Shown: piece by piece, positions 2,319 through 54,970 of the stretch
Layout of the letters: each line of letters starts with the position of its first letter
Position numbering within the stretch: position 1 is the first letter of the stretch
DNA from: a candidate division FCPU426 bacterium
GTDB lineage: Bacteria; Oederibacteriota; Muellerivitia; Muellerivitales; Muellerivitaceae
NCBI GenBank assembly: GCA_003152075.1
Contig: PLZG01000054.1
Span: 21,067 to 85,066, forward strand
Reading direction: 5' to 3'
DNA: 64,000 nt
The notes under the pieces: generated by a model
Told to the model about the DNA's origin: nothing
What the model saw: the letters and a program-made list of their open reading frames with translations, nothing else
Database searches by the model: none
Program-made: the position numbers and the translations under genes

Positions 2319-4667
2319 TCAAGCAACCAAGCGGCGGAAAAGGCTGAAGGTAAAGACCCCGAAAAAGACGAAAAAGAGGAAAAAACCAAGGCGAAGGCTA
2401 ACTGGTTCAAAATTTAACTCAACTTGATTGTCTCCTTTTACTAAGGGAACGGACATTAAAACCTCAAAGTCGCGTTTAATTTCAACCTTTTTGTTGTTAA
2501 CAACTGCCTTCCACCCAGGAAGAAAGGTTTTTTGAAGAAATAAAATATCTGTTTCAATTTCACTAGTCGGGTTATCTCGATTAGCTACCAAAGAAAGATT
2601 CGTTTCATTCCATTTCAAAATACGCAATTTGGATTCAAGCGAGTTTAATTCCATCGTTTTTTCATGTGTGATGCCGACATTAGCCTTTGGTATTGTTTCA
2701 GTGAGTAGATAAACATAAGGATATTTGTTCTGCAAGGTCAGAAAGGGTTTAGGAAGTTTTAAAGGTATGTCGGAAACGATCTGGTCTACTCCCAACATTT
2801 GAAGGTCCTCAACGTGGCGGGTAAATCCAAGCGGGTCTCGGTCCTTATAGACCCAGGAGAACCACCCGAGGTCAGCCAGGATTTTGAAGTAGCGGGGCAA
2901 GTGGGGATTGGCCACGAAGGCGATATTGGGGCGGTTGGAAAGGAAGTTCATGTTGGGGAAAGCCATTTCCCCGTATTGAGGAGGCAGGGGCGAGACATTA
3001 CCCGAAAGAAGAACCAGGGAACGGTTTTGAGGAGCGGGATAAGACGGCTGGGGAATATCGGCTGGGTTGTAAAAAGAATTTCCGACCGGCATTCGAAAGG
3101 CCATGAGGTCGGCGAAGAGTAATAAAAGCAGAAAACCTTTTTGGAAATTCAGGTTCCACTTCTGGCGGTTGAAGACACAGGTTGTTAATAAGCCAAGAAA
3201 AAGAAGCGGGAGAAACACTCTTGGTTGTCTGGGATCAAGGTTATAGGCCAGAGCATCCAGTTTCTCCGAAATCCGACCCAAGTAAACTGAGATGGGTTGG
3301 GTATGGATTCCATCGCCAGATATGAAATGCCCGATGGCCCAGGAAGCCATTCCTTGAAGTAAGGGCTTGCCAGGATTCAAAAAGAACCATCCCAGCAATA
3401 AGACACCCAGAGTGAAAGCGATGAGGCCCCAGCAAAGTTTCTGTCCGGCGGACACTAGCTTTATGTCCTTAAACCATTCGTCCCAAGCATAAGCTGCCCC
3501 CAGGCCAATGGCCCAAGTAATCAAAAACCAGTAACGGGCTGGGTCGCGGAAGAGGGAGAAAAAGGGAAGTCTTTGGACCAGGCTATAAACGAAAAAGAAT
3601 TTCCCGAAGGCCATCAAGAGGCCTAATAACCCGGTGATCTCAATCCATCGGCGCTGGGAGTTTTTATTCATGAAAAACAAAAGGATGAAAAAAAGCCCAA
3701 TAAGTCCGAAAGATACCTGCATCTCTACGAACTGATATTGCCACCAATAGTCCGTACCCGCTCGGTCGAACTGTTCCTTGCCGAAGAACCAAGGAAAAAC
3801 CAAGGTCAGGAAGTTCAGGGGTGTCCAGGAATGGAAAAAGCGGTCTGCTTCCCCCCATTGATTGAAACTCTCGCCTCCCTGGCACTCTAGGGTGAAAAGA
3901 AGTTGGGCTGAGGAGGTCGCCAAGGCTCCCAGAAAAAGGCCGCCTGAAGCTTTGAGCTTGTTCAACAGAGGGGAAGGATTGGAGAGGAAAATCCAGGCTA
4001 AGAAGAAGAGACCCTCCAGAAAAGCGATTTGAGGATGTCCTGAAAGGACATTCAGGCCGAACAGGAACCCGGAGAAGATCAACCACAGGGTCTTACCCGA
4101 CTTGAGATATTCCACTAATCCCAGGAAAGCCCATGGGAAGAAGGCATGGGCCCAGACCACATTCAAGTGGTCTAACTGGGCCATCTGGTGGCCGTTGTAG
4201 GTCCAAAGGAAAGCTAGGAGAAGCGATGCGGAACGGGACAGTCCTAAATGAAGGCCCAGGAAATAACTCCCTGAAAGATAAAGGGCCAGGGGGCATAGGA
4301 AAAGCAGGTTGAAATCGAGGTTGAAGGAAGGAAAGAGGTGTAAGAGCCAAAGGACGGGGGAGAGGATTCCGATCATCTCTACGGCTGCCACAGGTGCGCC
4401 GTTGTAGGCCAGGTCCGAGATCAAGGGAAGTTTCCCTTCCGCCAGGTGCTCGTGAACCCACTGGTAAAGGGGGTAATAGGCGAAGGTCATGTCTAGAGAG
4501 AGGAAAACTTTCGAGGTTAGATGAGAGAACCAATCCCAAAAGCAGATAAGGAAGGAGGCGGTTAAAACAAGATAAGGACCAGCTTTTTTCCAAGGGAAAG
4601 CCAGTTGAGGTGAGGGGGGATTAATTTTCTTGGGCTTTTTCGTAAATCCCCCTGGATTGAAAAGCAT
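2319..4667 (-). CDS. YfhO-like polytopic membrane protein, putative GT-C glycosyltransferase, paralog 1
   Basis: 782 aa with many TM helices. N-terminal ...YPLYQWVHEHLAEGKLPL... motif is shared with the two paralogs at 6596 and 8859. Large C-terminal extracytoplasmic domain. Confidence 0.5.
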   Translation of the reverse strand: MLFNPGGFTKKPKKINPPSPQLAFPWKKAGPYLVLTASFLICFWDWFSHLTSKVFLSLDMTFAYYPLYQWVHEHLAEGKLPLISDLAYNGAPVAAVEMIGILSPVLWLLHLFPSFNLDFNLLFLCPLALYLSGSYFLGLHLGLSRSASLLLAFLWTYNGHQMAQLDHLNVVWAHAFFPWAFLGLVEYLKSGKTLWLIFSGFLFGLNVLSGHPQIAFLEGLFFLAWIFLSNPSPLLNKLKASGGLFLGALATSSAQLLFTLECQGGESFNQWGEADRFFHSWTPLNFLTLVFPWFFGKEQFDRAGTDYWWQYQFVEMQVSFGLIGLFFILLFFMNKNSQRRWIEITGLLGLLMAFGKFFFVYSLVQRLPFFSLFRDPARYWFLITWAIGLGAAYAWDEWFKDIKLVSAGQKLCWGLIAFTLGVLLLGWFFLNPGKPLLQGMASWAIGHFISGDGIHTQPISVYLGRISEKLDALAYNLDPRQPRVFLPLLFLGLLTTCVFNRQKWNLNFQKGFLLLLLFADLMAFRMPVGNSFYNPADIPQPSYPAPQNRSLVLLSGNVSPLPPQYGEMAFPNMNFLSNRPNIAFVANPHLPRYFKILADLGWFSWVYKDRDPLGFTRHVEDLQMLGVDQIVSDIPLKLPKPFLTLQNKYPYVYLLTETIPKANVGITHEKTMELNSLESKLRILKWNETNLSLVANRDNPTSEIETDILFLQKTFLPGWKAVVNNKKVEIKRDFEVLMSVPLVKGDNQVELNFEPVSLRLGFFLFFVFFGVFTFSLFRRLVA

Positions 4668-4732
4668 ATTTAAACTGGGGTTGCCACGTCGTAACCGTCC
4701 CGCTATTCGCGGGGCACTTCTCGCAATGACAG

Positions 4733-5626
4733 CTATTTAGTTTTTTTCTCGAGGTATTGCAGCAGTTCTCCGGTAACGGTTCCCACGCAGATTTCCTCCA
4801 CCGGGCCCCGCATGTTCAGCTCAAAATCCTTGCTGACCTTTAAGGACAGGTCCCCGCCGGGCATGTGGATAGTCAGGTCGCCGTCGGTCTTTCCGGTTTT
4901 CACGCAAACGGCCGCGACGGCGCAGGAGGAGGAGCCGGAAGCCAGGGTATAGCCCGCGCCACGCTCCCAAATGCGGATGCTGACTTCTTGGCGGTTGTTC
5001 ACCACCGCGAATTGGACGTTGGTGCGTTTCGGAAAGAGGGGGTGATTTTCGATGATGGGGCCGAACTCGCGGGCAAAGGCCTCCGCCTTTTCGATAGTAT
5101 CCACGAAAATCACGCAATGGGGGTTGCCCATGGAAACGCAGTTGATCTTGAATCCCTCGCCGCCGTTGTTCAGTGGGATCATTTTGTCCAAGACTTCCGA
5201 CTCGCTCCTGGGAACATTGACGGGGATTTCCCCGGCGGTGAACAACGCCTTGCCCATGTCCACGGTCACCGCCACGGCCTTGCCCACCACCAGGTGAAGC
5301 TGGGCTTGCACCATGCCCCCCGCCGTCTCGATCTCAAAGAAGGATTTGGTGGTATAGCCGTGCTCGAACAAGAATTTGCAGAAGATCCGCAGGCCATTAC
5401 CGCTCTTTTCGGCCTCGCTTCCGTCCGGGTTATAGATTCTCAGCCGGGCCTCGGAATTCTTGGCCTTTTCTAAGGCCAGGATGCCGTCGGAGCCCACACC
5501 AGTGTTGCGGTTGCAGATCCGCACGATGTTTTGGGGGGTTAATTCAAAGGAAAGAGAAGCTGGATCCATCACGATATAGTCGTTGCCCAAGCCGTGGGAC
5601 CGGACAAATTGGTTTTTAGATAACAT
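4733..5626 (-). CDS. dapF: diaminopimelate epimerase
   Basis: 297 aa with GLGNDYIV and KSGNGLRIF motifs, duplicated DapF fold. Confidence 0.9.
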   Translation of the reverse strand: MLSKNQFVRSHGLGNDYIVMDPASLSFELTPQNIVRICNRNTGVGSDGILALEKAKNSEARLRIYNPDGSEAEKSGNGLRIFCKFLFEHGYTTKSFFEIETAGGMVQAQLHLVVGKAVAVTVDMGKALFTAGEIPVNVPRSESEVLDKMIPLNNGGEGFKINCVSMGNPHCVIFVDTIEKAEAFAREFGPIIENHPLFPKRTNVQFAVVNNRQEVSIRIWERGAGYTLASGSSSCAVAAVCVKTGKTDGDLTIHMPGGDLSLKVSKDFELNMRGPVEEICVGTVTGELLQYLEKKTK

Positions 5627-5636
5627 CTAACACTCC

Positions 5637-5733
5637 ATTTTCACCACGAAGTACACGAAGGTAAATCTTCTTTTAAAGAATTAACAAAAATATATGTTTC
5701 ACTTCGTGTGGCGCGAAGCGCCTTCGTGGTTAA
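5637..5733. repeat. family-B inverted-repeat element (ttttcaccacgaag ... cttcgtgg arms, AT-rich centre)
   Basis: Terminal inverted repeats flank an AT-rich spacer of about 40 nt. The GGTGAAAA end abuts the dapF RBS/start on the minus strand. Confidence 0.6.
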
Positions 5734-6593
5734 TGTTCTTTCACGCAGTACAGGTTCGTGTATTCGTCGTTTTCAACGGTATAACGGCTTAATAATTGAA
5801 GGGGCCGGACCGGCTTGATCGTCTTGTTCTTTTCGGAAATCTCCGAAATTTTGAACCCCATTGACTGAAGGGTCTTTAAATATTTGGCGGGGTCGCTTCC
5901 AAAGCGTTTAAGCCCCCCCGGCCAGAACTCCGTCACTAGCTTCAGGAACCTATTCTTCCGGACCAAGCCTTTCATTCCCTCCAGAGCCGCCATTTCCGCG
6001 CCTTGAATGTCCATTTTAATGAATTGAACTGCCTTGTCTCTATTTAAAAAGAACTTGTCCAGGGCGACGGTTTGGACCGTGATGGATTTCCGGCCGTCCT
6101 TGGAATTGTAAAGACGATGGTCTCCCTTGTTGGTTTCGCTAAGGAATAGGCGAGCGGTGTGGGTTTTGTTCGAGACGGCATCATTCAAGGGAATCACGTT
6201 GGTGTAACCATTTGCCAACACGTTCTTCAGGAGCAGTTTGAAATTGGCAGGGTCCGGTTCGAAAGCGTAAACCTTGCCCCCGTTTCCAGCCAATCGGGCC
6301 GCGATCAAGGTGTAATAACCGAGATTGGCCCCAATATCCAAAACCACATCCCCGGCGTGAATTTCCTTGAGGAAGAGATTCGTTTCCATCGGCTCGTAAA
6401 TGGTGTGGGTTCCCAATTCCAGGGTATCCCGGTCATCCAGCCATATCCGGTGGCCCTGGGCCACGACCGATTTGGGCCTCAAGAGGGTGAAGAAAAATTC
6501 GTAAAGCCACCGCAGGGGTTTGATCCGGCCCAGACCGTGACCGCCGATGGAGTAATAGGTTTTTTGAAGGAGGGTAAAGAGGTGGTTGGCCAT
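5730..6593 (-). CDS. FkbM-family SAM-dependent methyltransferase
   Basis: VLDIGANLGYYTL and IKMDIQGAE motifs. Start refined to ATG at 6593 (GGAG 12 nt upstream), 3 nt after the upstream stop; the track ORF extends to 6689. Confidence 0.75.
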   Translation of the reverse strand: MANHLFTLLQKTYYSIGGHGLGRIKPLRWLYEFFFTLLRPKSVVAQGHRIWLDDRDTLELGTHTIYEPMETNLFLKEIHAGDVVLDIGANLGYYTLIAARLAGNGGKVYAFEPDPANFKLLLKNVLANGYTNVIPLNDAVSNKTHTARLFLSETNKGDHRLYNSKDGRKSITVQTVALDKFFLNRDKAVQFIKMDIQGAEMAALEGMKGLVRKNRFLKLVTEFWPGGLKRFGSDPAKYLKTLQSMGFKISEISEKNKTIKPVRPLQLLSRYTVENDEYTNLYCVKEH

Positions 6594-6595
6594 GG

Positions 6596-8881
6596 TTAAT
6601 TTCTCCACATGCGAATGGGACCCAGGAAAAAGAATCCGAAGGTGATGAGAAGCCATAGTACCAGACCGATTTGAATGGGGTGAAGCCAATCGGGCTCAAA
6701 CCGAAACTCCACTTGGTGCTTCCCAGCCTCCATAAAAACCGACCTTAATAAATGGTCCGCGGTGAAGATGGCGGTGGGTTGGCCGTCCACCCAGGCCTTC
6801 CAGCCGGGAAACATGGTTTCGGAAAAAACCACAAGGCTGAATTGATCTAGGTTGATCCCGAATTGCTGGTAATCGGCATCGTCCCGCTCAAACTGGTAAT
6901 CGAGATGAGGATCATGCGCTTTTGAGATTCTTGGAAAATACTCGAAGAGTATCTTTTCGGTAAGGATTGCGGATATATGGGGGTCGAAACCAGGTTCGGA
7001 TAGAGTTTTGATCCTTTTCTCGAGTTCTGGGGTTTCCAATATGTAAGCGGGAGCAAAAACGTAAGGAAGGGGTTTCGCGTATTCGTACAAAATAAAGGGC
7101 GGATAGGATTCTTTTTTAAAGTTTGGTATTTCACCCAGATCCTGTTGGGTCACGATGCCCTTGATGGTCCCGACACCGACCATGGATTCCATTCCTAGAG
7201 TTCCCGTTTCCATTTTGGCCTGAAGAATCAAGGGGTTATACCCGCCAATATTTTTTATTTTCAAAGCGCAAGCCGCGTTTTGGGGGTAATTCAAAAGATA
7301 TTTTTGTCCCAGGACCTCGATGGGATAAAACATATGGATATTATCGAATTTAAGCCGGAAAGGTTTGATCCTCTGCCCGATTTCCACGAGGGTTTTTGAG
7401 TTTTTTTCATAATCAAAATTTGAAGAGGGACCGGGAATAAAATCCGCCCAGCCCCCTAATAAAAGGGAAAGGCCCAGGGCGGTTTGCATGAGGAGTGGGG
7501 CCGATTTTTTCCCTTTGGAAAACGCGAAAAAGGAGGCCATGCCTAAGGTCATGGCCACGATTTCACGCCAGTTCGCGGCGGGTTTAAAAAGCGCGACCAA
7601 GTTTAAGGACAGCCCGTAAATCAAGGGATACTTCAGCCCATCGAGGAGTTTTCCCTTGGCCGGTTTTTTGGAAAACCATTCCTCAAAACCTAATGCCGCC
7701 AGCAGGACGAGGGGGATAATGAAGAGATAAATAAAGCGGTAGGGAACGCGGATGAGGGAAACTCCCGGCAATACCGCGCATAAAAGGCGGTGGAGGGGGG
7801 TGAGCTGGCCGAAACAAAGGACCAGGGCGGCCAAGGCAAAAACCGAAAGAAACTTCACTAGCCCCTTATCTTTTCGGCGAAAGGCCGCCAGCGCGAAAAA
7901 GGGCGCCCAGACCCCCAGGAAACCCCAATTGCCAGCCAAGGGCATTTGGTCATCATTGCTCCTGGATTGCAGGGCCTCCGACATGGACTCCTTACCAGTT
8001 TGGGTAAAACGGGGAAGAAACAATTGGTAAAGGGAAAGGGGATTAAGTGGAAGGCGGCTATTGGCCTGCTCATAGGTTTGGCCTGGAGCTCCCCGGTCCG
8101 TCCGATTCGAAAATTCCAATGTGGGGATCAACTGGCCCAGGAGGGGCAAGGCACCCCAAAGGAAGAAAAAGGTTAAAAGTAAAAAAGTGTAAAAGTTCAA
8201 AGGTGAAACTTTTGAGAGCTTTTGATACAGGCGGTATAGAAAATAAGCCAATCCCCCGTAAAAAGCTCCCACCGTCACTTGAAAACTCCCGCAAAGGAAA
8301 AGCATGGCGAAACACAAGCCGGCGTAAAAGGCGTTTCGCGGTTTTGGGTTGAGGGCCAGTAGTTCCAACCGCCCGAACAGCCAGGGAAGCCAAGCGAAGG
8401 CGGCCACGACTGGTGGATGGATGATCTCTAGCCAGAAAAAATTGGAGAGGGAAAACAAGAGGGCTCCTGCAAGGCAGGCATTCTCGGAAAGCTTGATTGA
8501 CCGAAGCCACAAGTGCATCCCGGCCGCGGCGATGAACATGTGCAGGAAAAAGAAGAGGCTCATTCCATAGGGCAGGGAAAAGGGGAGAGTCAGGTAATTG
8601 ACCGGGTAAAGCATCATGTTTTGGAGGTCGGCGAAGAAGGGCTGGCCGCCCATGGAATAGGGGTTCCAGAGGGGGAAATGTCCTTGGGCCAGTTGGTCCC
8701 TTAAAAAAGCGCGCCAGGGGCCGAACTGGGCCAGCAAGTCATTGTCAAAGTAGGCTTGTCCCAGGACCAGGCAGGGGAAAAAGGCGACGAAGGATAAAAA
8801 GGCGTAAAGAACAAATGGAAAAAGGGGATGGGTCCAGAAATCCGCGGGAGAGGTTTTATTAGTTCGTTTGCGCAGGGGCAA
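6596..8881 (-). CDS. YfhO-like polytopic membrane protein, paralog 2
   Basis: 761 aa. N-terminus FFPCLVLGQAYFDNDL...GHFPLWNPYSMGGQPFFADLQNMMLYPVNYL is nearly identical in pattern to paralog 3. At least 12 TM segments plus a C-terminal soluble domain. Confidence 0.6.
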   Translation of the reverse strand: MPLRKRTNKTSPADFWTHPLFPFVLYAFLSFVAFFPCLVLGQAYFDNDLLAQFGPWRAFLRDQLAQGHFPLWNPYSMGGQPFFADLQNMMLYPVNYLTLPFSLPYGMSLFFFLHMFIAAAGMHLWLRSIKLSENACLAGALLFSLSNFFWLEIIHPPVVAAFAWLPWLFGRLELLALNPKPRNAFYAGLCFAMLFLCGSFQVTVGAFYGGLAYFLYRLYQKLSKVSPLNFYTFLLLTFFFLWGALPLLGQLIPTLEFSNRTDRGAPGQTYEQANSRLPLNPLSLYQLFLPRFTQTGKESMSEALQSRSNDDQMPLAGNWGFLGVWAPFFALAAFRRKDKGLVKFLSVFALAALVLCFGQLTPLHRLLCAVLPGVSLIRVPYRFIYLFIIPLVLLAALGFEEWFSKKPAKGKLLDGLKYPLIYGLSLNLVALFKPAANWREIVAMTLGMASFFAFSKGKKSAPLLMQTALGLSLLLGGWADFIPGPSSNFDYEKNSKTLVEIGQRIKPFRLKFDNIHMFYPIEVLGQKYLLNYPQNAACALKIKNIGGYNPLILQAKMETGTLGMESMVGVGTIKGIVTQQDLGEIPNFKKESYPPFILYEYAKPLPYVFAPAYILETPELEKRIKTLSEPGFDPHISAILTEKILFEYFPRISKAHDPHLDYQFERDDADYQQFGINLDQFSLVVFSETMFPGWKAWVDGQPTAIFTADHLLRSVFMEAGKHQVEFRFEPDWLHPIQIGLVLWLLITFGFFFLGPIRMWRN

Positions 8882-11183
8882 GAGGGGCTGTCCTTCTACC
8901 TCTTAATTGAAAAACAACGTAAGCGACCACTGAAAGGCACCAGGCTATCATGCCCCAAAGGAGAGGGGTTAGCCAAGCGGGAACGTAGCGGAATTCCACT
9001 TGATGGTCGCCGGCGGGAACAAATAGAGTCCGGAAGACGTGGTTGCCCGTGAGGATTTCGGCGGGGTTCCCATCCACCCAGGCCTTCCAGCCGGGAAAGA
9101 CATTCTCGGAAACGGTCACCAGGCTATTGGCGTCCAGTTGAACCTTGAAAAGCTGGTCGTCCACCTCGTCCCTGGAAATCTCATACTTGAGTTGGGCTTG
9201 TTTCCCCGAAAGCTGGGAAGTGATATTTGCTGGAAGGGGTTCGTTGAAAACGATCTGTTGGGCCGGGTTGAATTCAGGTTTGGCCATGGCTTCCAAATCC
9301 TTGCCGGGGTCTGGAATGACCTGGACCTGGGAAGGGGCGTGGAGGTACTCGATGGGATCGAGGGGCTGGTAAAAATGCACCGAGCCGGATACCTGATGGG
9401 AAAACATCTTCGAAAGTTCGGGCGTTTTCTGAAGGGGCTGTTGGAAAAGGAAACCCCGAATGGCCATTAACTGCTGGTAATTCTTAAAGGGGACCTTTTT
9501 GATTTCCATGGCTTTTTTCAGGACGATGGGGTTGTAACCCTCGTTCATCCGGATGCCGAAAACCATGGGGGCGTCCGCCGGAAAGGCCCCCGCAAAAGTT
9601 GAGGAACCCATCTTGACCGGGTAACTCAGGTTTGAATCGAAGTAATAACGGGAGCCTTTTGTTTGCGTTTTTAAAGTGGAAAACATGGGGAAGTTGGATT
9701 CCAGGTCGAAATTGGAAGCGGGACCCAGGCTATAGCCGCTCCATCCCCTTAAGAGCAGGGGCAGGAGGAGGGCGACCTGGAAAAACAGTTTGCCCAAAGG
9801 TTTCCACGATTCCGTCAAACCCCATAAAGCCAAACCGGCCCCGCCTAGGAAGAGGGCCAGCATTTCCGGCCAGGTTTGTCCCGGGTTGGCCAGGCATACC
9901 ACAAACAAGAGGAGGGCGAAGCCGCAGCCGGTCAGGACCAGGCCGGAATGACGACCTTTTTCCTGGAAGAACCTTTCCAGGGTTTGGTACCCGTAGGCCG
10001 ACAAGACCGAGCCGAACAGCACGTAAGCCAGGACATAGCGGAAGGGAGCCCGGCTTAAGTTGATGCCCGGCAGGATCGCGCAAAAAATCCGGTGCAGGGG
10101 AAAATACCTTCCCCAAGCGGTCAAAATGGCTAAAACCCCGAACCCCAATAAAAAATAAAGAAACTTTTTATCCTTCCGCTTAAAGGCCAGGAAGAAAAGG
10201 AAAGGTATCCAAACCCCTAAGTAACCCTCGGCCCCTAGGAAATCATTGTCCATGTTTTTCTGGTCGGTAATGCTTTGGATAGCGGATTCCATGGTGCCTC
10301 CCGAGGGAATCCCCAGGGCGGGAAAAAGGAACTCATAGGTGGTAAAAGGAACCATGGAAAAGGTCCCGGTGAAATTCTCGTAGGTTTGGGCAGGATCCCG
10401 GCGGTTGGACAGCTGGGAAAACTCGTTGGCTGGAATCAGCTGGGTCAGTAGGGGAAGCCCGCCCCAAAGTCCAAAAAGCAAAACGATCAGGAGTTTTTTC
10501 CAGAGGAAACGGTTTATGGTTTGGACGGTGGATGTCGAAGTTTCTTCCTCCCTTGTCCATAGCCGGAAGAGAAAATAAACCAATGAAGTGTATAAAACGC
10601 AGAGCGTGGTTTGGAAAGAACCCCCGCAAAAGACTACCGCGAAGCAAAGGCCTGAGAGAAAGCCCCAGCCTGGCGTCAATTTCTTGGAAAGATTTTCCAG
10701 GCAAGCCATCATCCAGGGAAAGAAGGCGAAAACCGCCAGGATAGGCGGATGGATGGTTTCCCACCAGAAGACGCCGCAACAAGCGAAGGTGAGGGCGCCC
10801 AGGCGGGCGGAATTTTCCGAAAGCCTCAGGGATTTCAGCCAGAAATACATACCCATGGCGGCTAAGGCCATGTGCAGGAACATGAAAAAACCCAGGTTGT
10901 AGGGGGTGGGGAAAAGCAGGGTCAGATAGTTCAAGGGATAACACATCATGGCGTCGGGGTCGGCGAAGAAGGGTTCGCCCCCGAAAAAGTAGGGGTTCCA
11001 AAGGGGGAAGTGGCCCGCGAAGAGCTGATCCCGCAGGAAAGTCCTCCAATGTCCATGGGAACTCATAAGGTCATTGGCGAAATAGGATTGGTTCAGGGCC
11101 AAACAGGGAAAGAAAGCCACGAAGGAGAAGGCCAGGAACAGCAGGCAGGCGTAGAGGGGCTTGAAAGCTGGCTTTTCCTCCAT
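8859..11183 (-). CDS. YfhO-like polytopic membrane protein, paralog 3
   Basis: 774 aa. FFPCLALNQSYFANDL...GHFPLWNPYFFGGEPFFADPDAMMCYPLNYL. Overlaps paralog 2 by 23 nt. Confidence 0.6.
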   Translation of the reverse strand: MEEKPAFKPLYACLLFLAFSFVAFFPCLALNQSYFANDLMSSHGHWRTFLRDQLFAGHFPLWNPYFFGGEPFFADPDAMMCYPLNYLTLLFPTPYNLGFFMFLHMALAAMGMYFWLKSLRLSENSARLGALTFACCGVFWWETIHPPILAVFAFFPWMMACLENLSKKLTPGWGFLSGLCFAVVFCGGSFQTTLCVLYTSLVYFLFRLWTREEETSTSTVQTINRFLWKKLLIVLLFGLWGGLPLLTQLIPANEFSQLSNRRDPAQTYENFTGTFSMVPFTTYEFLFPALGIPSGGTMESAIQSITDQKNMDNDFLGAEGYLGVWIPFLFFLAFKRKDKKFLYFLLGFGVLAILTAWGRYFPLHRIFCAILPGINLSRAPFRYVLAYVLFGSVLSAYGYQTLERFFQEKGRHSGLVLTGCGFALLLFVVCLANPGQTWPEMLALFLGGAGLALWGLTESWKPLGKLFFQVALLLPLLLRGWSGYSLGPASNFDLESNFPMFSTLKTQTKGSRYYFDSNLSYPVKMGSSTFAGAFPADAPMVFGIRMNEGYNPIVLKKAMEIKKVPFKNYQQLMAIRGFLFQQPLQKTPELSKMFSHQVSGSVHFYQPLDPIEYLHAPSQVQVIPDPGKDLEAMAKPEFNPAQQIVFNEPLPANITSQLSGKQAQLKYEISRDEVDDQLFKVQLDANSLVTVSENVFPGWKAWVDGNPAEILTGNHVFRTLFVPAGDHQVEFRYVPAWLTPLLWGMIAWCLSVVAYVVFQLRGRRTAPLAPAQTN

Positions 11184-12215
11184 TTACTTTTTCCCCGCGC
11201 GGACCGAAATAAATTTAAATTTGTTCCCACCCTTTTGAACCTTGTAAACCTGGACTTCCAAGGGGGGCTGGGGGATGGAAGTGAAGAAACCGGCGCTGAG
11301 GCCCAAACCGTAAAGGGAATGCCGTAGGAAAATGAGGATCGGTACCTTGAAGGCGTCCATGAAACGGCGGTGGTAGGAGGCGGCAGAAATGCCCGTGCCG
11401 ACAGCTCCCAAAAGGAAAAGGGCCAGGGGTATCCAACCGAGGGATTTGAGAAGGGATAAAAAAGGTTGCCAAGCTGGTCCCACCGTGACCACCCAGGGCA
11501 GGGGCAGTGAGAGCAGGTAAAGCACGAAGAAGAGCGGGGCCAGGTGGATGATGTCGGAGAGGCAGGGGTAGACCTTCATTTGCCGGGCACGGCCACGGCC
11601 ATAGCGGAAGGCCTGCCAACAGAAGGCGCCCAGAGACTTGCGGCGTGAGCGGAAAACCGCGCCCCGGGGATCGTAAACCAGCCGGAAGCCCTTGTGGAGC
11701 AGGCGGTTCAAAAACTCATTTTCCTCGTTGGGGTAAAGGTCGGTCCGGAACCCCCCCTCACTCAGGAAAGTGTCCCGGCGTACCATCATGTTGCAGAGGA
11801 TCAGGTCCTTCTCGGTAGCTTCCTTTACTGAGCCGATAGAAGCGTAACGGAAGCGCACGCTGAAACTGCCCATCCAGGAGGCCAGCACGGCATTGACCGT
11901 CTTTTCGAAAGAGATGGCATCGGGCGGCACCAGGTTGGGCCCACCCGCCACTGCGGTACGGCGGTCCTCGAAATGGGAAAGCAGGTCGGTAACCGTGCCT
12001 TCGGCTACTTGGCTGTCATCGTCCAGGAAATAAACCAGGGGAGTGGAACAACTTTTCACTCCCGCGTTTCTCTGGTTGGAAGGGTTTTTACCCACGCAGA
12101 CGAAAATCTCCCGCGTGCGTTCGCCCGCTCCCATTTTTTGGAGGGCTGGCAGGGCGCCAATCGGCCGGTCCAACCGGTCGATGACGATGACGACGCTATA
12201 GCTTGGTTTTTTCAT
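11184..12215 (-). CDS. family-2 glycosyltransferase with C-terminal TM helices (polyprenyl-phosphate sugar synthase-like, GtrB/CsbB-type)
   Basis: MKKPSYSVVIVI.. then a DxD-containing GT-A domain, then 3-4 C-terminal TM helices. Its stop abuts the YfhO paralog 3 start. The alternative upstream start at 12266 is less likely. Confidence 0.75.
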   Translation of the reverse strand: MKKPSYSVVIVIDRLDRPIGALPALQKMGAGERTREIFVCVGKNPSNQRNAGVKSCSTPLVYFLDDDSQVAEGTVTDLLSHFEDRRTAVAGGPNLVPPDAISFEKTVNAVLASWMGSFSVRFRYASIGSVKEATEKDLILCNMMVRRDTFLSEGGFRTDLYPNEENEFLNRLLHKGFRLVYDPRGAVFRSRRKSLGAFCWQAFRYGRGRARQMKVYPCLSDIIHLAPLFFVLYLLSLPLPWVVTVGPAWQPFLSLLKSLGWIPLALFLLGAVGTGISAASYHRRFMDAFKVPILIFLRHSLYGLGLSAGFFTSIPQPPLEVQVYKVQKGGNKFKFISVRAGKK

Positions 12216-13176
12216 GGGGATGCTTGAAGACTGAGAGGAGTTGGGTGGCGGCCGGGATACCGGCAAGGGAAACGAAGAGGGGCCCGACGATGACGATCAA
12301 TAGGGAAAAGGCCATCAGGGATTCCTTCGGAAGTTGGTCGGATGTAAAAAGTAAGAACATGGCGGCTTCCCTCGTTCCAAAGCCCATAATCGAAATGGGA
12401 AGCAATTCTACCATGATCATCACCGGGGCGAGTAAGGCGAATTTGAAAAAGCCCAGGGGCAGCCCCAGGGCCATGGCGCAAAAGTAGGCCCTCAAGATGG
12501 CGGTTTCCCAGGCTAAAAAGGAAAGGACGAAGGGGCCGAATATCCGGAAAGAAGGGATCAGTAGGGTGTGGAGCTTGTCGTAAAATTCCTTTCCATGGTG
12601 GGAAAGCTGTTCCCCCAATTTTTTGGACAGGAGCCCCATCACCAGGGGTTTCAAGAGGTATTTCATCCAGCGTGGGTTAAGAAAGATAAGAACCAGGAAC
12701 ATGCCCGCAAGCATCCCCAGGATGGCGGCCAGGGCAGGTCCCTGTTGCTGGGACCCCACCAGGAAGGAAATGAAGCCGATGATGGCCAGAACCAGGACGG
12801 CCGCCAGGTCGTAAATGCGGTCTGCCGCGTGAACCGCGAGGGCGGTTGGCATGGGCAAGCGGCAGAGACGGTTTAACAGGATGATGCGGGTAACATCCCC
12901 CAGCTTACCGGGCGTGACGGCGGCCAGGGGCTGGCCGGAAAGGAAGGCCCAAGCCGCGTTTTTGAGGGAGATATAGGAAGAAGCCCGGGCCACGAAGGAT
13001 TTCAAGCGCTGGGATTTAAAGAAGATCTCGGGGGCGGCGAAAAGAAAGGCTGGAAGGAACCAGCGGAAGTCCACCATCCTCAGGGTTTCCCAGGAAGCCC
13101 GAAGGTTCAACCTGCTGAGGATGAGCAGGAGGAGGGCAGGGCCGAAAAGGAAAGAAAAGGATTTCAGGTAACGCAA
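12196..13176 (-). CDS. flippase-like / lysylphosphatidylglycerol-synthase-TM-domain family membrane protein
   Basis: 326 aa, about 8 TM helices. N-terminal LLLLILSRLNLRASWETL.. resembles the UPF0104/TIGR00374 family, which is often adjacent to GT2 genes. Confidence 0.5.
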   Translation of the reverse strand: MRYLKSFSFLFGPALLLLILSRLNLRASWETLRMVDFRWFLPAFLFAAPEIFFKSQRLKSFVARASSYISLKNAAWAFLSGQPLAAVTPGKLGDVTRIILLNRLCRLPMPTALAVHAADRIYDLAAVLVLAIIGFISFLVGSQQQGPALAAILGMLAGMFLVLIFLNPRWMKYLLKPLVMGLLSKKLGEQLSHHGKEFYDKLHTLLIPSFRIFGPFVLSFLAWETAILRAYFCAMALGLPLGFFKFALLAPVMIMVELLPISIMGFGTREAAMFLLFTSDQLPKESLMAFSLLIVIVGPLFVSLAGIPAATQLLSVFKHPHEKTKL

Positions 13177-14264
13177 AGCTGTCGCAGCCTTTCTTCCAGG
13201 TCTTGAATACAGCGGGTCCAGTCCAATGTTTTTACCAGCAAAGCCGCTTCCCGTGGGGATTTTCTGGCCTTGAGGGCCCGTAAAACCGCCTTTGAGAAGG
13301 CGGCGGGGTTGGGCGGCGAGGGGAAAAGAGCTTTTTTAAAGAGGATTGTTTCGCCCACGTCCGCCGCCACCACCCGGCATCCGCAGGCGATGGCTTCCCG
13401 CAGTTTCATGGAGGCTCGGTATTGGTTCACCGAGCTGTCCTTGTAATAAACCAGGGCTGCGTCGGATAGTTTGAGGCAGGCCGCCACCTGCCGGGGTGTG
13501 AGGTAACCGGTGAAGTGGACAGCAGGCGCGATTCCCATATCCAAGGCCAGGCGCTTGAAGCGTCCCTCGTCAGGACCACCTCCGGCCACCAAAAGCTGAA
13601 CACCGGGAAGGGAGCGTTGGATCAACTTGAAGGATTCCATCAGGGGTTCCAGGTCGCAGGCCACGCTCAAGTGGGCGGTGAAGGTCAGGATGGGTCCCTT
13701 GCCATTGCGGTTTTTAAGAGCTGCTCCCGCGCGGGGAAGATCGTCCATCTTTAAGGGGCCTGGGTGGAAAAGGCCTCCGTCCACGCCTTGGGGAAGACAA
13801 ACCAGTTTTTTTGCCGGAACCTTGAAGACCTTTTGCAGCGGTTCCCGTAGGTGGGGATTGTGGTAGGTCACCAAGTCTGCCCACTTAGGCCAGGGTTCTT
13901 GGAGCCACTTGTGGAGCGCCCGAAACCAGCCGTGGCTGTAATCGTAATCCAGGTCATCCACGTCAATGGTTACCTTCGCACCTTTGCACTTTTGCACAAA
14001 GAGGCCGGGAACAACCGTAGGGTATGGTTTTATAGCGATAGCGACATCTGATTTAACCCATAAGGAAATCCAAAAATAGTAAAAGGCCGATAATACCATG
14101 TCGAACCAGAGGGGAAGGCTGGGAATGGGTTTGATGAAGTGAACTTGGTGACCTCTTTTCTCGAAGGCCTCAGCGATATAACGGGCTCGCAGGGCGCAGC
14201 CCGTTCCTCCGCCTTTAGCGGAAAGAACAAGGATTATCAAGGATTTGGGGGTGGTTGGCTTCAT
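13164..14264 (-). CDS. GT4-family (GT-B) glycosyltransferase
   Basis: 366 aa with the C-terminal E-x7-E-like GT4 motif region (..KLREAIACGCRVVAADVGE..). Confidence 0.75.
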   Translation of the reverse strand: MKPTTPKSLIILVLSAKGGGTGCALRARYIAEAFEKRGHQVHFIKPIPSLPLWFDMVLSAFYYFWISLWVKSDVAIAIKPYPTVVPGLFVQKCKGAKVTIDVDDLDYDYSHGWFRALHKWLQEPWPKWADLVTYHNPHLREPLQKVFKVPAKKLVCLPQGVDGGLFHPGPLKMDDLPRAGAALKNRNGKGPILTFTAHLSVACDLEPLMESFKLIQRSLPGVQLLVAGGGPDEGRFKRLALDMGIAPAVHFTGYLTPRQVAACLKLSDAALVYYKDSSVNQYRASMKLREAIACGCRVVAADVGETILFKKALFPSPPNPAAFSKAVLRALKARKSPREAALLVKTLDWTRCIQDLEERLRQLCVT

Positions 14265-14499
14265 AAGTTCTGGAAGATTGTAAAGGCCCGGTGGGGGAGG
14301 AGCTACCTGAAAAACGGATTAAGTGATTGTCATTCTGAGGCGCTTTCCGCCGAAGAATCTATGTTTTCCAAACAAAACAAAGATCCTTCGCTTCGCTCAG
14401 GATTATGTATTAAGCGTTTAAGAACAAAAAAAGCCCGGGGCTTGGGGCCCCGGGCTTATCAATTTGGCTTAGCTTAACGGCGCGTAGGCGCCCTAAGAC

Positions 14500-15999
14500 T
14501 TAAGGACAGGTCGTGGCGATGAAATTATCCACGTGCAAGGTGTTGGTCGTCACGATGTTGTAACTGCGGATTCCCGCGCCCCCGGTAGCGTAGAGGGGGG
14601 TCGTGAGGGGGTCAGGCACGCTGCTGAAGATTTGCGTGGTCGCACCATCCATCAGGCCGTCCCCCGATTCGGTCGTCACCCAACCGTTGAAACTGTTGCC
14701 CGAAGCGGTGGCTTTCAAGTGCACCCAGGTACCCAGGGTGTAGGGATTGGAGCTGTTGGTGCCGGGGTAGTAGTAAGTCCCCACCCCAGTTTGTTTCTCG
14801 ATCTCCCAGCGGCTGTTCAAGCCGTTCCACTGGAAGATATAGGCGTAGTAGGAGGCCGGGGTCGAGCGTAAAACCACCCCGAAAACGCCCTGGGCGACGG
14901 TATCCAGCTTGAAGTCGCCTTCCACCCTATAGTCCCCTAAGCTTTGAGAGAAATTGGCGTTGTTGACGATGTCATAGGAATAGGTGATGCCGGGATTGTG
15001 CTGGAACTCACCTCCGGTTACGCTCCAGCCCAAAGCCGCGGCGGTCGTGGGTGTCCAGGCCCCGTCGTAGTAGTCGTAGTTGCCGACGGTGTTGGAACTA
15101 TAATTATCCGAGTAAGTGGTGCCGGAGCAAGTGGGCGTGGGGGAGGGCGTCGCGGTCACCGCGCAGTTATAAGCCGTGAAATTTTTCACGTGCAGGGTGT
15201 TGGTCGACACGATGTTGTAACTGCGGATTCCCGCAGCTCCCGTCGAATAGGGTGTCGTGGTCCCCGGGTCAGTCACGTTGGTGAAAATCTGCACCGTCGG
15301 CCCACCGGCGGGGGTAATCCAAGCGTTCATCAGATTTCCCGGGCCAGCTGTCACTTTCAAGTGTACCCAAGTTCCCAGCGTGTAAGGCGAACTGGAATTG
15401 TTGCCGGGGTAATAATAGGTTCCTACAGCATACTGTTTCTCGATCTCCCAACGGCTGTTCAAGCCGTTCCATTGGAAGATATAGGCGTCGGGTGACCCTT
15501 GGGTGGCCCGGAACACGAGGCCGAATACGCCTTGCGCAACGGTGTCGAGTTTGAAATCGCCTTCCACCGAGTAATCACCCAGGGATTGACTGAACAGGGA
15601 GTTGGTCACCAGCTCGTAGGAATAGGTGATACCGGGGTTTTGTTGAAACTCCCCTCCGGTAACACTCCAGCCAAGCGCCGCGGCTGAGGACGGAGACCAG
15701 GCACCGTCGTAATAAACGTAATTGGCGAGGCTTAAGGAACTTCCGTAGCTGTCCGTAAACGAAGCGCAACCCGGTGTGGAGGTGCTGGTGGCGGTAGCCG
15801 AACCCGTGGGGGTTGAGGTGGGCGGTGTTTGGGTCGGCGAATGCGTGGTCGTTCCACCGGGTACAACGGTTGAGGTGTTTGCTGGCGTGGGGGTAGAAAA
15901 AACAGGGGGAAGGGTGATGCCCGTTGTTCCACAAGCGAAGGGACCTACCATCAAGATCAAACAAAGACTGGCGAAAAGAAAGGCTGAATATCGATTCAT
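14500..15999 (-). CDS. secreted lipoprotein with Thr/Pro linker and two tandem ~230-aa concanavalin-A-like (LamG/DUF1080-type) domains
   Basis: Lipobox-like signal (..MVGPFACG), then a TPTP linker, then an internal duplication (WSVTGGEFQ.NPGITYSY....GDF.LDTVAQGVFG...IFQWNGLNSRWEIEKQ). Domain assignment is tentative. Confidence 0.6.
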   Translation of the reverse strand: MNRYSAFLFASLCLILMVGPFACGTTGITLPPVFSTPTPANTSTVVPGGTTTHSPTQTPPTSTPTGSATATSTSTPGCASFTDSYGSSLSLANYVYYDGAWSPSSAAALGWSVTGGEFQQNPGITYSYELVTNSLFSQSLGDYSVEGDFKLDTVAQGVFGLVFRATQGSPDAYIFQWNGLNSRWEIEKQYAVGTYYYPGNNSSSPYTLGTWVHLKVTAGPGNLMNAWITPAGGPTVQIFTNVTDPGTTTPYSTGAAGIRSYNIVSTNTLHVKNFTAYNCAVTATPSPTPTCSGTTYSDNYSSNTVGNYDYYDGAWTPTTAAALGWSVTGGEFQHNPGITYSYDIVNNANFSQSLGDYRVEGDFKLDTVAQGVFGVVLRSTPASYYAYIFQWNGLNSRWEIEKQTGVGTYYYPGTNSSNPYTLGTWVHLKATASGNSFNGWVTTESGDGLMDGATTQIFSSVPDPLTTPLYATGGAGIRSYNIVTTNTLHVDNFIATTCP

Positions 16000-16134
16000 A
16001 TTACTCTCCCGAAATTTAAATAAACAACCACAGGCTTTTCAAATTGACCTGTACTAAATAATGTTTCTCAGGAGGCTATTATTCCATGAAATTTGAAGAA
16101 AATGGGGGCGATAAAGCCCATAAAAACATGGGTT

Positions 16135-16929
16135 TTAGGGACAGCCCGGGGTCTTCACGGAGAAATTGTCCAGGTGCAGAATGTTGCCGCCCAGGATGTT
16201 ATAGGCTCGGATACCCGCGCCTCCTGCGGTATAGGGAGCCGTGGTTCCGGGATCGCTCACTCCGTTAAAGATGGTCACCGTCGCGCCCAACCCAACGCCG
16301 GGACTTGTTTCAGGGGTCTCATAGCAGTTGAAATTGTTCCCCGATATCACCGCCTTCAAATGCACCCAAGTCCCAAGCGTGTAGGGAGAACCAGAATTCG
16401 TGCCAGGATAATAATAAGTGCCAACCCCGATTTGTTTTTCGATCTCCCAACGATTATTAAGCCCGTTCCATTGGAAAATATAGGCATGAAAGGAGGCCGG
16501 TGTCGCGCGACTGATCACCCCGAACACCCCCTGGCCCACCGTGCCAAGGTTAAAGTCGCCCTCAACCGTGTAATCTCCCAACGATTGGTTGAAAGTGGAG
16601 TTGTTGACGATGGCGTAAGAATAGGTAATGGTGCTAGGCGACCCCACTTGGAATTCCCCGGAAGTAATCTGAATGGACAGGGCCGCGGGGGTGGCAGCGG
16701 TCCAGGACTGATCATAGGTGTCATAGTTGGCCAGGGTGTTACTGCCGTAAGAATCCGTGTAGATGTAACAGGTTGGCGTGGCCGTAGGCGCGTTGGAATT
16801 GGGTAGATTCACAGGGCAGTTTTTCAAGGTGCAGTCGAGGGAAAGAACGGTCAAAAACAGGGACAAGAGGGGAAGGCCCCAGGCTAAAGTTCGCTTCAAT
16901 TTCCTCTCCAGGACATACTTTTGTCTCAT
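16135..16929 (-). CDS. secreted protein with one copy of the same concanavalin-A-like domain
   Basis: Paralog of 14500..15999 with signal peptide and the same IFQWNGLNNRWEIEKQ core. Confidence 0.6.
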   Translation of the reverse strand: MRQKYVLERKLKRTLAWGLPLLSLFLTVLSLDCTLKNCPVNLPNSNAPTATPTCYIYTDSYGSNTLANYDTYDQSWTAATPAALSIQITSGEFQVGSPSTITYSYAIVNNSTFNQSLGDYTVEGDFNLGTVGQGVFGVISRATPASFHAYIFQWNGLNNRWEIEKQIGVGTYYYPGTNSGSPYTLGTWVHLKAVISGNNFNCYETPETSPGVGLGATVTIFNGVSDPGTTAPYTAGGAGIRAYNILGGNILHLDNFSVKTPGCP

Positions 16930-17076
16930 GTATATGATGTTTTTGAAAGACGTTTTATTCCGAAAAAACCTAATTAAACTATTGGCACGGTCGAATTAAG
17001 TCTTTACCGCCCACATCCTAGTATGTTTTAATCAAGCCGACAAATTTTTTTAAAGAAAAATATTGGACATCAAACT

Positions 17077-17433
17077 ATGAAAAAAGCCATCCTTTTCCTC
17101 TATTTACTGGCGGTGATCGCTCCTTTTGGGGCCAATGCCCTCGACATACCCGACTCGGGAACTTCCTATTCCTACCCACTCCCGGCCAAGGCCGGTGGCT
17201 TGGTCAATATTGTTTACACCATGGCTAGTTCGGGGACGGTCCAGGTCCTGGCTTACAACGAATCAAGTGACTTGGTGATGAATTTCACAGATCTCAAAAC
17301 CGCCGGATTACAATCCAGTCAAGTGGACCTCTGTTGCCTGGCCCCTGGAATATATCTTTATTTGGTGATGATCAACTACGATTCGGGCAGTAAGGAAAAA
17401 CTGAAGCCCGCCAAATTCGTGGTTGTCCGCTAG
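17077..17433 (+). CDS. stand-alone FlgD-Ig / T9SS-CTD-like domain protein with signal peptide
   Basis: 118 aa. Signal peptide, then YPLPAKAGGLVNIVYTM..GTVQVLAYNESSDLV...GIYLYLVMINYDSGSKEKLKPAKFVVVR, matching the C-terminal domains of the large secreted proteins in this window. Confidence 0.6.
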   Translation: MKKAILFLYLLAVIAPFGANALDIPDSGTSYSYPLPAKAGGLVNIVYTMASSGTVQVLAYNESSDLVMNFTDLKTAGLQSSQVDLCCLAPGIYLYLVMINYDSGSKEKLKPAKFVVVR

Positions 17434-17508
17434 CGGACAACCCATGTTTACCTTGAAAACAAAATCCACCTGGAAGGAGTTCACTAAAAGTTATTTTATG
17501 AACCCAAA

Positions 17509-17547
17509 ACCCTCGCCCCTTGCGGGAGAGGGTAGGGTGATGGGTGT
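17509..17547. repeat. family-A GC-rich hairpin repeat (AACCCTCGCCCCTTGCGGGAGAGGGTAGGGTGAGGGG)
   Basis: Near-identical copies at 27519, 30311 and 57611 (reverse), plus variants at 20766 and 43518. Lies in the 5' leader of the gene at 17630. Confidence 0.8.
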
Positions 17548-17629
17548 GGAAAAACCGATTGTTGCAACCCTCCCCCCAACACACTTCCCTCGAGGGAGAA
17601 ATTGTAAAGCTATTAAAAGCATTGACGAA

Positions 17630-18994: not shown

Positions 18995-19057
18995 TGCAAT
19001 TATTTCATAAAGTTTGGAATAACTGGGCGGTCCAAATCATTATTTAAGTGAGGGGCC

Positions 19058-28787: not shown

Positions 28788-28799
28788 GATGGCTTCCCC

Positions 28800-30256: not shown

Positions 30257-30310
30257 AACAAAACTCCTTTTGTGATTCTATCTACTGTCCGCGATAGGCC
30301 ATTTTCTAGA

Positions 30311-30349
30311 AACCCTCGCCCCTTGCGGGAGAGGGTAGGGTGAGGGGGG
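30311..30349. repeat. family-A repeat copy
   Basis: aaccctcgccccttgcgggagagggtagggtgagggggg. Confidence 0.8.
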
Positions 30350-30358
30350 ATTCTTTCC

Positions 30359-31843: not shown

Positions 31844-31920
31844 AGTTTCCTCCTAGATGAAATGTCTTTGAGGTTTGAAAAGTTGGCAGTTGTTCGTTGT
31901 GAGGATAAAAATAGAATTTT

Positions 31921-54930: not shown

Positions 54931-54970
54931 TCATGAGACTAAAAAACTTTTAAAAATTTAGGGGTCCATT

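Follow-up and report, generated by a model that had tools for sequence, protein, structure and literature searches.

What could a bacterium make with three paralogous membrane proteins that are encoded together with a membrane-anchored glycosyltransferase, a flippase-like protein, and a methyltransferase? This question is raised by a 64,000-nucleotide stretch of contig PLZG01000054.1 (hereafter the window, to which all positions refer), from a bacterium of soil or peat that belongs to candidate division FCPU426 and has not been cultured, in which eight genes form a compact cluster between positions 2319 and 14264. Our reading, to which we assign a probability of roughly 55%, is that a sugar, perhaps methylated, is built up on a lipid inside the cell, flipped to the other side of the membrane, and joined there to its targets by three glycosyltransferases of the GT-C fold, here called Y1, Y2, and Y3. 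A GT-A enzyme, a flippase-like protein, and GT-C enzymes are encoded together at this locus and stay linked across about 30 loci, and a module of GT2, flippase-like protein, and GT-C is a recognized architecture (PMC8035078, PMC5898192), in agreement with the three-component logic that an initial annotation of this DNA had proposed.

All eight open reading frames (ORFs) lie on the minus strand, and their number, strand, and coordinates bear out that annotation. The first gene of the tight block encodes a 366-residue cytoplasmic GT4 glycosyltransferase of GT-B fold (13164..14264). It is followed by a 326-residue UPF0104/LPG_synthase_TM membrane protein of the MprF-flippase type ("PplT"; 12196..13176), the presumed lipid translocator; a 343-residue membrane-anchored GT2 of GT-A fold (11184..12215); Y3 (8859..11183, 774 residues) and Y2 (6596..8881, 761 residues); a 287-residue FkbM-family S-adenosylmethionine (SAM)–dependent methyltransferase (5730..6593); the diaminopimelate epimerase DapF (4733..5626); and the more divergent Y1 (2319..4667, 782 residues). 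Neighboring genes overlap or abut at five of the seven junctions (GT4/flippase-like, flippase-like/GT2, GT2/Y3, Y3/Y2, and Y2/fkbM), with the flippase-like gene sharing 13 bp with the GT4 gene and 20 bp with the GT2 gene, an arrangement from GT4 to FkbM that is compatible with one transcript. The earlier statement that every gene overlaps or abuts the next holds for this block and fails for dapF and Y1, which are set off by gaps of 103 bp (fkbM–dapF) and 65 bp (dapF–Y1). At its 5′ end, the cluster is bounded by a terminator-like minus-strand hairpin (14431..14457) with an 11-bp stem containing nine G-C pairs, followed by a T-run (TTTTTGTT). Because this hairpin lies between the GT4 gene and the Thr/Pro-rich gene upstream (14500..15999), the latter constitutes a separate transcription unit.

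The listed fkbM ORF (5730–6689) begins with TTG and runs into Y2; as the public gene call comprises 287 residues and homolog alignments begin at residue 33 at the earliest, we place the start at the ATG codon (6593) that immediately follows the stop of Y2 (6596–6598). The 343-residue GT2 start is supported by P0121 (92% identical, 100% coverage), and the 782-residue Y1 ORF by its orthologs, which align from residues 9 to 45 onward. The public Y1 gene call (P0241, 723 residues, 100% identical) begins at Met60, leaving out the 5′ end of the gene (4490–4667), and hence cuts off transmembrane (TM) helix 1 together with Asp59, the invariant residue just before Met60 that is described below.

Identity and conservation of the three GT-C paralogs

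Y1, Y2, and Y3 are paralogs, with 39% identity between Y2 and Y3 over 748 residues (E 1.5e-179) and 24% between Y1 and Y2 over 758 residues (E 5e-15). Against the Pfam YfhO profile (PF09586, cut-off 28.5 bits), they score 34.4 (Y1), 24.7 (Y2), and 23.3 bits (Y3), all of them weak matches to only the last 40 to 66 profile positions, and the sole NCBIfam match of Y1 is PgfM1, far below the cut-off. A phmmer search from Y3 recovers about 90 full-length relatives that form a clade of their own (E < 1e-87), beyond which proteins named "YfhO family" by their sources appear at E 1e-23 to 1e-32; distant relatives, P0094 and P0097 among them, match positions 76–474 of the Pfam profile at 71–93 bits. 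When the alignment of the FCPU426 clade (A2) is compared by hhalign with that of 11 YfhO-type relatives (A4; five were scanned and pass PF09586, and two are named YfhO by their sources), the two match over 708 columns with a probability of 100% (E 6e-82).

For Y3, AlphaFold2 with an alignment of 34 sequences gave a model of high predicted quality (predicted local distance difference test [pLDDT] 92.7, predicted TM-score [pTM] 0.92), which comprises about 13 membrane helices, a β-rich domain (residues 486–733), and a terminal TM helix. In a Foldseek search of the PDB with this model, ranks 1 to 32 are occupied entirely by GT-C enzymes, including AftD (best E-value, 4e-8), PglB, ArnT (best TM-score, TMt 0.58), AglB, STT3, EmbA/B/C, AftA, PMT, DPY19, and ALG3, with unrelated folds appearing only from rank 33 at a probability of at most 0.12. 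Direct sequence searches of the PDB with Y1, Y3, and the family profile returned no match, and no solved YfhO-type structure is detectable by sequence search for comparison. On the basis of remote homology and the predicted fold of Y3, the three proteins are divergent YfhO-family GT-C glycosyltransferases, with Y1 and Y2 expected by homology to share the Y3 fold. The profile comparison and the Y3 fold matches bear out the initial identification of the large proteins as YfhO-like GT-C paralogs, and the GT-C fold that it anticipated is predicted for Y3. The possibility that Y1–Y3 are transporters was considered and rejected, given that the top 32 PDB matches of the Y3 model are all GT-C enzymes.

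In GT-C enzymes, the catalytic acid sits in the first loop after TM1. All 34 aligned sequences, those of the three paralogs included, carry an invariant Asp just behind TM1 (D38 in Y3, D48 in Y2, and D59 in Y1), the putative catalytic acid, which is predicted from topology to face outward. Y1 retains D59, H167, R374, R378, and the C-terminal GW and lacks R47, W62, H104, R261, D704, and R718, six near-invariant residues of the Y2/Y3 clade; these losses would fit a different specificity.

In a scan of one genome per species, relatives occur in metagenome-assembled genomes (MAGs) labeled candidate division FCPU426, with a few labeled proteobacterium, Firestonebacteria, or "bacterium," and the best identity to Y3 in this genome scan is 60%. 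The window proteins were compared by tblastn with 77 loci. The order flippase-like, GT2, Y3, Y2, fkbM, dapF, Y1 recurs in about 30 loci (L078 and L079 are annotated examples) at 35–76% protein identity, usually with a GT4 ahead. In most related loci, the flippase-like gene is preceded by a GT4 ortholog of 46–67% identity, none being detected at this position in L007, L010, L011, L014, L019, and L030, and the flippase-like gene adjoins GT2 wherever both are detected. Throughout the related loci, the best match of the first GT-C is always Y3 and that of the second always Y2 (45–58% identity for the Y2 orthogroup in most loci), so the paralogs represent old, separately conserved orthogroups. The differentiation of the three paralogs, as initially described, is thus maintained across the phylum. 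Copy number varies around this pattern: a single Y2/Y3-type copy is present in L008, L021, L026, and L033, three such copies in L006, L017, and L020, and two copies of Y1 in L023 and L024, and Y1 is absent from L079.

The region upstream of the cluster is variable, with VapBC in L078 and a Thr/Pro-rich protein in the window. In most related loci dapF lies between fkbM and Y1, and shared synteny continues downstream to ilvD. A mechanistic role of dapF was rejected on the grounds that its product is a full DapF equivalog (TIGR00652, 241 bits; cut-off 114.65) and that the shared order extends to ilvD; it is probably a housekeeping passenger outside the mechanism.

The GT2, its presumed translocator partner, and a possible link to methylation

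The GT2 matches PF13632 and PF00535, carries an FLDDD motif, and has C-terminal TM helices. Three motifs are invariant in 31 homologs (F63-L64-D65-x-D67, P162-N-E-E-N166, and Y205-G-x-G-R209); the aspartates D65 and D67 of the DxD motif, whose absence would have spoken against the initial assignment, are among these residues. The description of the protein as GtrB-like was not upheld. Its best families are PF13632 and models of the MftF, EpsD, and ExoA type, and relatives are named ExoA or cellulose-synthase-like by their sources. The AlphaFold2 model (pLDDT 92, pTM 0.86) shows a GT-A domain, interface helices, and about four C-terminal helices, and Foldseek matches it to BcsA, to the archaeal mannosyltransferase PcManGT (6yv7, "minimal cellulose-synthase-like"), and to hyaluronan synthases (HAS), with neither GtrB nor dolichol phosphate mannose synthase (DPMS) among the top 50 structural matches. 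The best PDB profile match is PglI, over 32 residues only. A further, weak match is to AglG. The protein also carries a QxxRY-G-x-G-R motif, similar to the Q(Q/R)xRW of synthase-type GT2s. Taken together, the GT2 is an ExoA-like or minimal cellulose-synthase-like membrane enzyme and not of the GtrB/CsbB/DPM1 type.

A profile search for the GT2 yields 920 relatives at E ≤ 1e-30. The best 150 of these are almost all stand-alone proteins of 310–350 residues; none of the 150 is fused to UPF0104, and the only fusions found among them join the GT2 to a SAM methyltransferase (P0318) or to another GT2, in one protein each. Around two out-group GT2 relatives, no UPF0104 or GT-C neighbors were found.

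The flippase-like protein matches PF03706 with 126.1 bits (cut-off 33.4) over residues 10–306 of 326 and TIGR00374 with 67.5 bits (cut-off 43.2). Identity as a GtrA/GtcA protein, which would have three or four TM helices, was rejected because the protein has 326 residues, about eight hydrophobic segments, and PF03706 as its only Pfam match. It is a UPF0104/MprF-type domain, presumed from this family membership to act as a translocase; the PF03706 assignment proposed earlier therefore stands, and the analogy with GtcA does not. UPF0104 proteins have been predicted to translocate lipid-linked sugars, with archaeal AglD representing a GT2-UPF0104 fusion, and in archaea they adjoin AglD-like GT2s and distant PMT/STT3-like GT-Cs (PMC5898192). 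GpgF, likewise of UPF0104, is the predicted flippase beside the GT4 GpgS in a glucosaminyl (GlcN)-phosphatidylglycerol operon (PMC12713373). The GT4 of the cluster matches PF00534 (56 bits) and PF13692 (55 bits) and has no TM helix; against the N-acetylglucosaminyl (GlcNAc)-phosphatidylglycerol synthase (GpgS) model, it scores 15.5 bits at a cut-off of 480.

The methyltransferase is a clear FkbM-family member (PF05050, 83.8 bits, cut-off 22.7; TIGR01444, 105.8 bits, cut-off 37.7). In P0073–P0075, the Y2 ortholog continues through the position of the abutting stop into FkbM, a fusion that shows functional coupling of at least that pair. The FkbM domain of P0073 comes straight after the last GT-C TM helix, behind a basic tail, and from this topology the fused methyltransferase would be cytoplasmic, where SAM is available. 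P0318, a 535-residue metagenomic member of the GT2 family fused to a class I SAM methyltransferase (Methyltransf_25/11), is a second, independent tie of the pathway to methylation.

A proposed pathway and its alternatives

In the pathway that we propose, the GT2 would work at the cytoplasmic face, where it would use a nucleotide sugar to load a lipid carrier in the membrane, most likely polyprenyl phosphate or a polyprenyl-linked glycan, and the GT4, where present, could contribute to loading or extending this lipid. FkbM would O-methylate the lipid-linked sugar in the cytoplasm, and the UPF0104 protein would then move the loaded lipid to the outer leaflet. There, Y3, Y2, and Y1 would transfer the sugar by means of the invariant Asp of the first extracytoplasmic loop to three different extracytoplasmic acceptors or acceptor positions. 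What the analysis shows is the gene content, the homology of all three large proteins to YfhO-type proteins, the predicted GT-C fold of Y3 and GT-A fold of the GT2, the conserved motifs and gene order, and the fusions of a GT-C with FkbM and of a GT2 with a methyltransferase; which lipid and sugar are used, which way the lipid is flipped, what is methylated, and where the sugar ends up are inferred.

Several observations weigh against this proposal. The GT2 is unlike the polyprenyl-phosphate sugar synthases GtrB, CsbB, DPMS, and ArnC and instead resembles enzymes that extend lipid-linked glycans or act processively, and outside the phylum its relatives stand alone, as judged from the two out-group neighborhoods and the mostly single-domain best 150. 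Flippase activity of a stand-alone UPF0104 protein is undemonstrated, even for GpgF (PMC12713373), and the demonstrated case of UPF0104-type flipping is MprF, with a phospholipid as substrate. The cluster contains neither a nucleotide-sugar gene nor an initiating phosphoglycosyltransferase. Y1 and GT4 are each missing from some loci, and the presence of dapF within the cluster, with synteny reaching to ilvD, may mean that part of the gene order is plain phylum-level synteny.

There are three rival explanations. In the main one, the lipid of the cluster is the acceptor rather than the donor, as in a lipoglycan or glycolipid pathway resembling that of mycobacterial lipomannan and lipoarabinomannan: the GT4 and/or the GT2 would glycosylate a membrane phospholipid or diacylglycerol in the cytoplasm, UPF0104 would flip it, and the GT-Cs would extend it outside with polyprenyl-phosphate sugars from a synthase encoded elsewhere. 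We regard this as unlikely. The pairing of GT4 with UPF0104 is the architecture of gpgSDF, which yields GlcN-phosphatidylglycerol, and the domain of MprF that flips phospholipids is a homolog of UPF0104 (PMC12713373, PMC5898192); the cluster, however, has no deacetylase, the GpgS score of its GT4 is negligible, and six loci keep the flippase-like gene, the GT2, and the GT-Cs with no GT4 detected upstream. This rival is also favored by the finding that the GT2 is not of the polyprenyl-phosphate synthase type, and orphan Y2/Y3-like paralogs that lie unlinked in the same genomes, lacking a GT2 or flippase-like neighbor (L025, L027–L029, L031, and L034–L037), suggest that a donor is supplied in trans. 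The best fold matches of Y3 include AftD and the Emb proteins, but such matches reflect the shared GT-C core only.

Transfer of a whole glycan is a more improbable alternative, in which the GT4 and GT2 would extend a polyprenyl-linked oligosaccharide primed elsewhere and the GT-Cs, after flipping, would pass it en bloc to proteins in the manner of PglB, AglB, and STT3. The nearest solved sequence relative of the GT2, PglI, extends an undecaprenyl diphosphate–linked heptasaccharide; AglG, its weak match, acts on a dolichyl phosphate–linked glycan; and PglB, AglB, and STT3 themselves appear among the fold matches of Y3. Yet characterized YfhO-family enzymes transfer single sugars from a C55-phosphate–linked sugar (PMC8035078, PMC12041528), the cluster encodes no priming phosphoglycosyltransferase and no Wzx- or PglK-type flippase, and no WWDxG-type motif is seen among the conserved alignment columns, although no search was aimed at this motif. 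A Wzy_C-TPR protein in L025 would also favor en bloc transfer: at 9923–19838 of that locus, unlinked YfhO-like paralogs flank a 998-residue Wzy_C (O-antigen-ligase-like) protein with TPR repeats, an arrangement that hints at a link of the GT-C clade to surface-glycan or protein O-glycan ligation. We give similarly little credence to the idea that there is no single pathway at all and that the order is inherited synteny of separate envelope genes, with the GT-Cs using donors and partners encoded elsewhere. The inclusion of dapF and ilvD in the conserved order, the position of Y1 behind a 65-bp gap and its absence from L079, and the stand-alone GT2 relatives in other phyla would all be expected on such grounds; the overlap or abutment of six genes, the persistence of flippase-like gene, GT2, and GT-C together at 35–76% identity while the upstream region varies, and the GT-C-FkbM fusion, which couples at least that pair, argue against it.

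The proposed order of events, with cytoplasmic loading of a carrier, flipping, and periplasmic transfer by a GT-C, is also that of lipid A modification by ArnC, ArnEF, and ArnT and of the mycobacterial pathways comprising Ppm1, PimA-B, and the GT-Cs PimE, Mpt, Emb, and Aft. The sequence relationship of our cluster to these systems is limited to the GT-C core, and the partner families differ. In Firmicutes, CsbB/GtcA/YfhO and related systems that glycosylate lipoteichoic and wall teichoic acids (PMC8035078, PMC5836110) likewise join a GT-A enzyme of the membrane and a small-lipid translocator to a YfhO-family GT-C whose C-terminal domain is extracytoplasmic, and in both cases a genome can hold several GT-C paralogs. 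In contrast to those systems, the GT2 of the cluster is ExoA-like or minimal cellulose-synthase-like rather than GtrB/CsbB-like, the translocator is of the UPF0104/MprF type rather than GtrA/GtcA, FkbM is coupled and in some genomes fused to a GT-C, the GT-Cs mostly fall below the Pfam YfhO cut-off, and the host, with its diderm-type envelope genes, shows no obvious teichoic acids.

The streptococcal GtrB/PgtC2 and PgfS/PgfM1/PgfM2 systems (PMC12041528) share with the cluster the use of YfhO-family GT-Cs and a genome rich in extracytoplasmic, disordered, Ser/Thr(/Pro)-rich linkers, carried by membrane-associated and secreted proteins, whereas the cluster has another type of GT2, no epimerase, and candidate acceptors that are Thr/Pro-rich instead of Ser/Thr-rich. 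An archaeal module of arCOG00899 (UPF0104), arCOG00897 (AglD-like GT2), and arCOG00563 (GT-C) follows the same three-part logic (PMC5898192) but is itself a prediction only, and our cluster differs from it in its bacterial host, its YfhO-type GT-C, and a GT2 that is not of the AglD/DPM1 type. The gpgSDF genes of Pseudomonas aeruginosa (PMC12713373) also place a GT4 next to UPF0104 in one predicted operon; relative to these, the cluster lacks the deacetylase, its GT4 does not match the GpgS model, and it encodes a GT2, a methyltransferase, and three GT-Cs beyond that pair.

All component families and the overall logic are already known. What is new is the combination of partners, in which UPF0104 replaces GtrA, the position of GtrB is taken by a GT2 of the ExoA-like or minimal cellulose-synthase-like kind, and FkbM is coupled or fused, together with a deep YfhO clade that mostly escapes Pfam, the presence of three conserved GT-C orthogroups in one locus, and the host phylum. 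YfhO-type GT-Cs have been studied in Firmicutes, for teichoic acids and recently for Ser/Thr-rich protein regions, and the cluster extends the family to a diverged clade in an uncultured phylum. If the proposed pathway is correct, then it would make it practicable to test whether UPF0104 proteins that stand alone can flip glycolipid carriers, as predicted since 2015 and never shown, and would point to a route for methylated surface glycans. The cluster is also a concrete candidate for the enzymes that would glycosylate the Thr/Pro-rich linkers so common among environmental bacteria.

Candidate acceptors and other features of the window

Where the sugar would be attached is less clear than how it might be made. 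An envelope glycan or lipid is our tentative first choice, held with somewhat less than even confidence. By analogy, the Thr/Pro-rich linkers of surface lipoproteins and secreted proteins are a possible but rather doubtful acceptor, and the remaining probability goes to something else. The window encodes a GT9 heptosyltransferase and proteins resembling outer-membrane proteins, from which the host is probably diderm.

The five secreted Thr/Pro/Ser-rich proteins reported in the initial annotation are all real. Their Thr/Pro/Ser-rich stretches span residues 25–82 and 282–304 in the product of the gene at 14500, 336–1079 in that of the gene at 43952, 65–117 at 49413, 745–818 at 50747, and 24–63 and 68–103 at 54971; a sixth protein (38805–40037) has a shorter Thr/Pro-rich stretch (residues 57–81). 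At 14500, 49413, and 54971, the Thr/Pro-rich stretch begins immediately behind a lipobox-like Cys or no more than about 40 residues after it; several of these proteins look, from their sequences, like lipoproteins, and in the protein at 50747 a Por_Secre_tail domain lies C-terminal to the stretch. Orthologs in related MAGs retain the Thr/Pro-rich linkers, which are thus a trait of the phylum.

In streptococci, the YfhO-family enzymes PgtC2 and PgfM1 act with GtrB and PgfS to O-glycosylate membrane-associated proteins in disordered regions that are rich in Ser and Thr (PMC12041528). Because of this activity, the Thr/Pro-rich proteins of the window are plausible acceptors, and PgtC2/PgfM1 is a closer precedent for linker glycosylation than the analogy with PMT enzymes. 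No result, however, links these proteins to the cluster. The adjacent gene (14500–15999) is separately terminated, the related loci have no detected homolog of it next to the cluster, and the vicinity of the clusters shows no enrichment of Thr/Pro-rich ORFs, with 2.2 per 100 kb in FCPU426-type loci against 7.8 in the window; around the YfhO genes of other phyla, the density is 4.1 per 100 kb. Unrelated Thr/Pro-rich lipoproteins do lie just upstream of GT4 in L013, L022, and the window, a coincidence within chance at these densities. In its most specific form, which we consider unlikely, the proposal would describe a diderm protein O-glycosylation machine that places a methylated sugar on Thr/Pro-rich tethers, both in surface lipoproteins and in secreted proteins whose C-terminal domains resemble those of the type IX secretion system (T9SS), using three GT-C orthogroups for different acceptor classes or successive sugars, a UPF0104 protein as the long-sought flippase of a polyprenyl-phosphate sugar, and a cellulose-synthase-like GT2 as a new type of polyprenyl-phosphate sugar synthase.

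The gene next to the cluster (14500..15999, minus strand) encodes a secreted protein, probably a lipoprotein, with two ConA-like domains and a weak PF06439 match. It forms a tandem pair with a minus-strand paralog (16135–16929) that has one copy of the same ConA-like/Laminin_G_3-type domain, each domain of the pair being preceded by a Thr/Pro-rich stretch and a Cys. The largest linker belongs to a 1289-residue secreted protein on the plus strand (43952–47821), whose 744-residue Thr/Pro-rich region is followed by a C-terminal FlgD_ig-like domain. Its gene contains degenerate 24-, 36-, and 84-bp repeats (45285–45560) and explains the strong negative GC skew (−0.30 to −0.35) at 44–48 kb.

Two similar plus-strand arrangements (17077–20382 and 47980–56236) place an extracytoplasmic function (ECF) sigma factor beside a possible anti-sigma-like protein. 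The sigma factor is encoded at 19058–19624 and probably also at 47980–48570, judged by a similar N-terminal sequence, and UPF0164/TPR proteins resembling outer-membrane proteins are encoded near these genes (17423–18994 and 53531–54835). The block at 47980–56236 also contains Thr/Pro-linker lipoproteins with Kelch, SBBP, or NHL β-propellers, among them the protein with the Por_Secre_tail sorting domain mentioned above (50747–53461).

Further into the window, two B12-binding radical SAM enzymes (32327–33802 and 34693–36291) and a nicotinamide adenine dinucleotide (NAD)–dependent sugar epimerase/dehydratase (36299–37258) are encoded on the minus strand (32327–37258) and may form a second sugar- or lipid-modifying locus. 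Nearby lies a low-GC island (30001–32000; GC 0.39 compared with about 0.52 elsewhere), which may be foreign or degraded DNA and which includes a truncated-looking phosphoribosyltransferase (30359–30832) and short ORFs with no Pfam match (31026–31364, 31538–31843, and 31921–32340). Two tandem AHSA1/SRPBCC-like paralogs with near-identical N-termini (28362–28787 from the scan, 28800–29234 recognized from its sequence) follow an ArsR-type regulator (29231–29602) on the minus strand (28362–29602). At the window edge, a minus-strand ORF (14–346) has a translation of low complexity, rich in Ala, Leu, and Phe (AAGAAAGASAAAAALAFLAFFAFLAFLAF), and probably does not represent a real gene.

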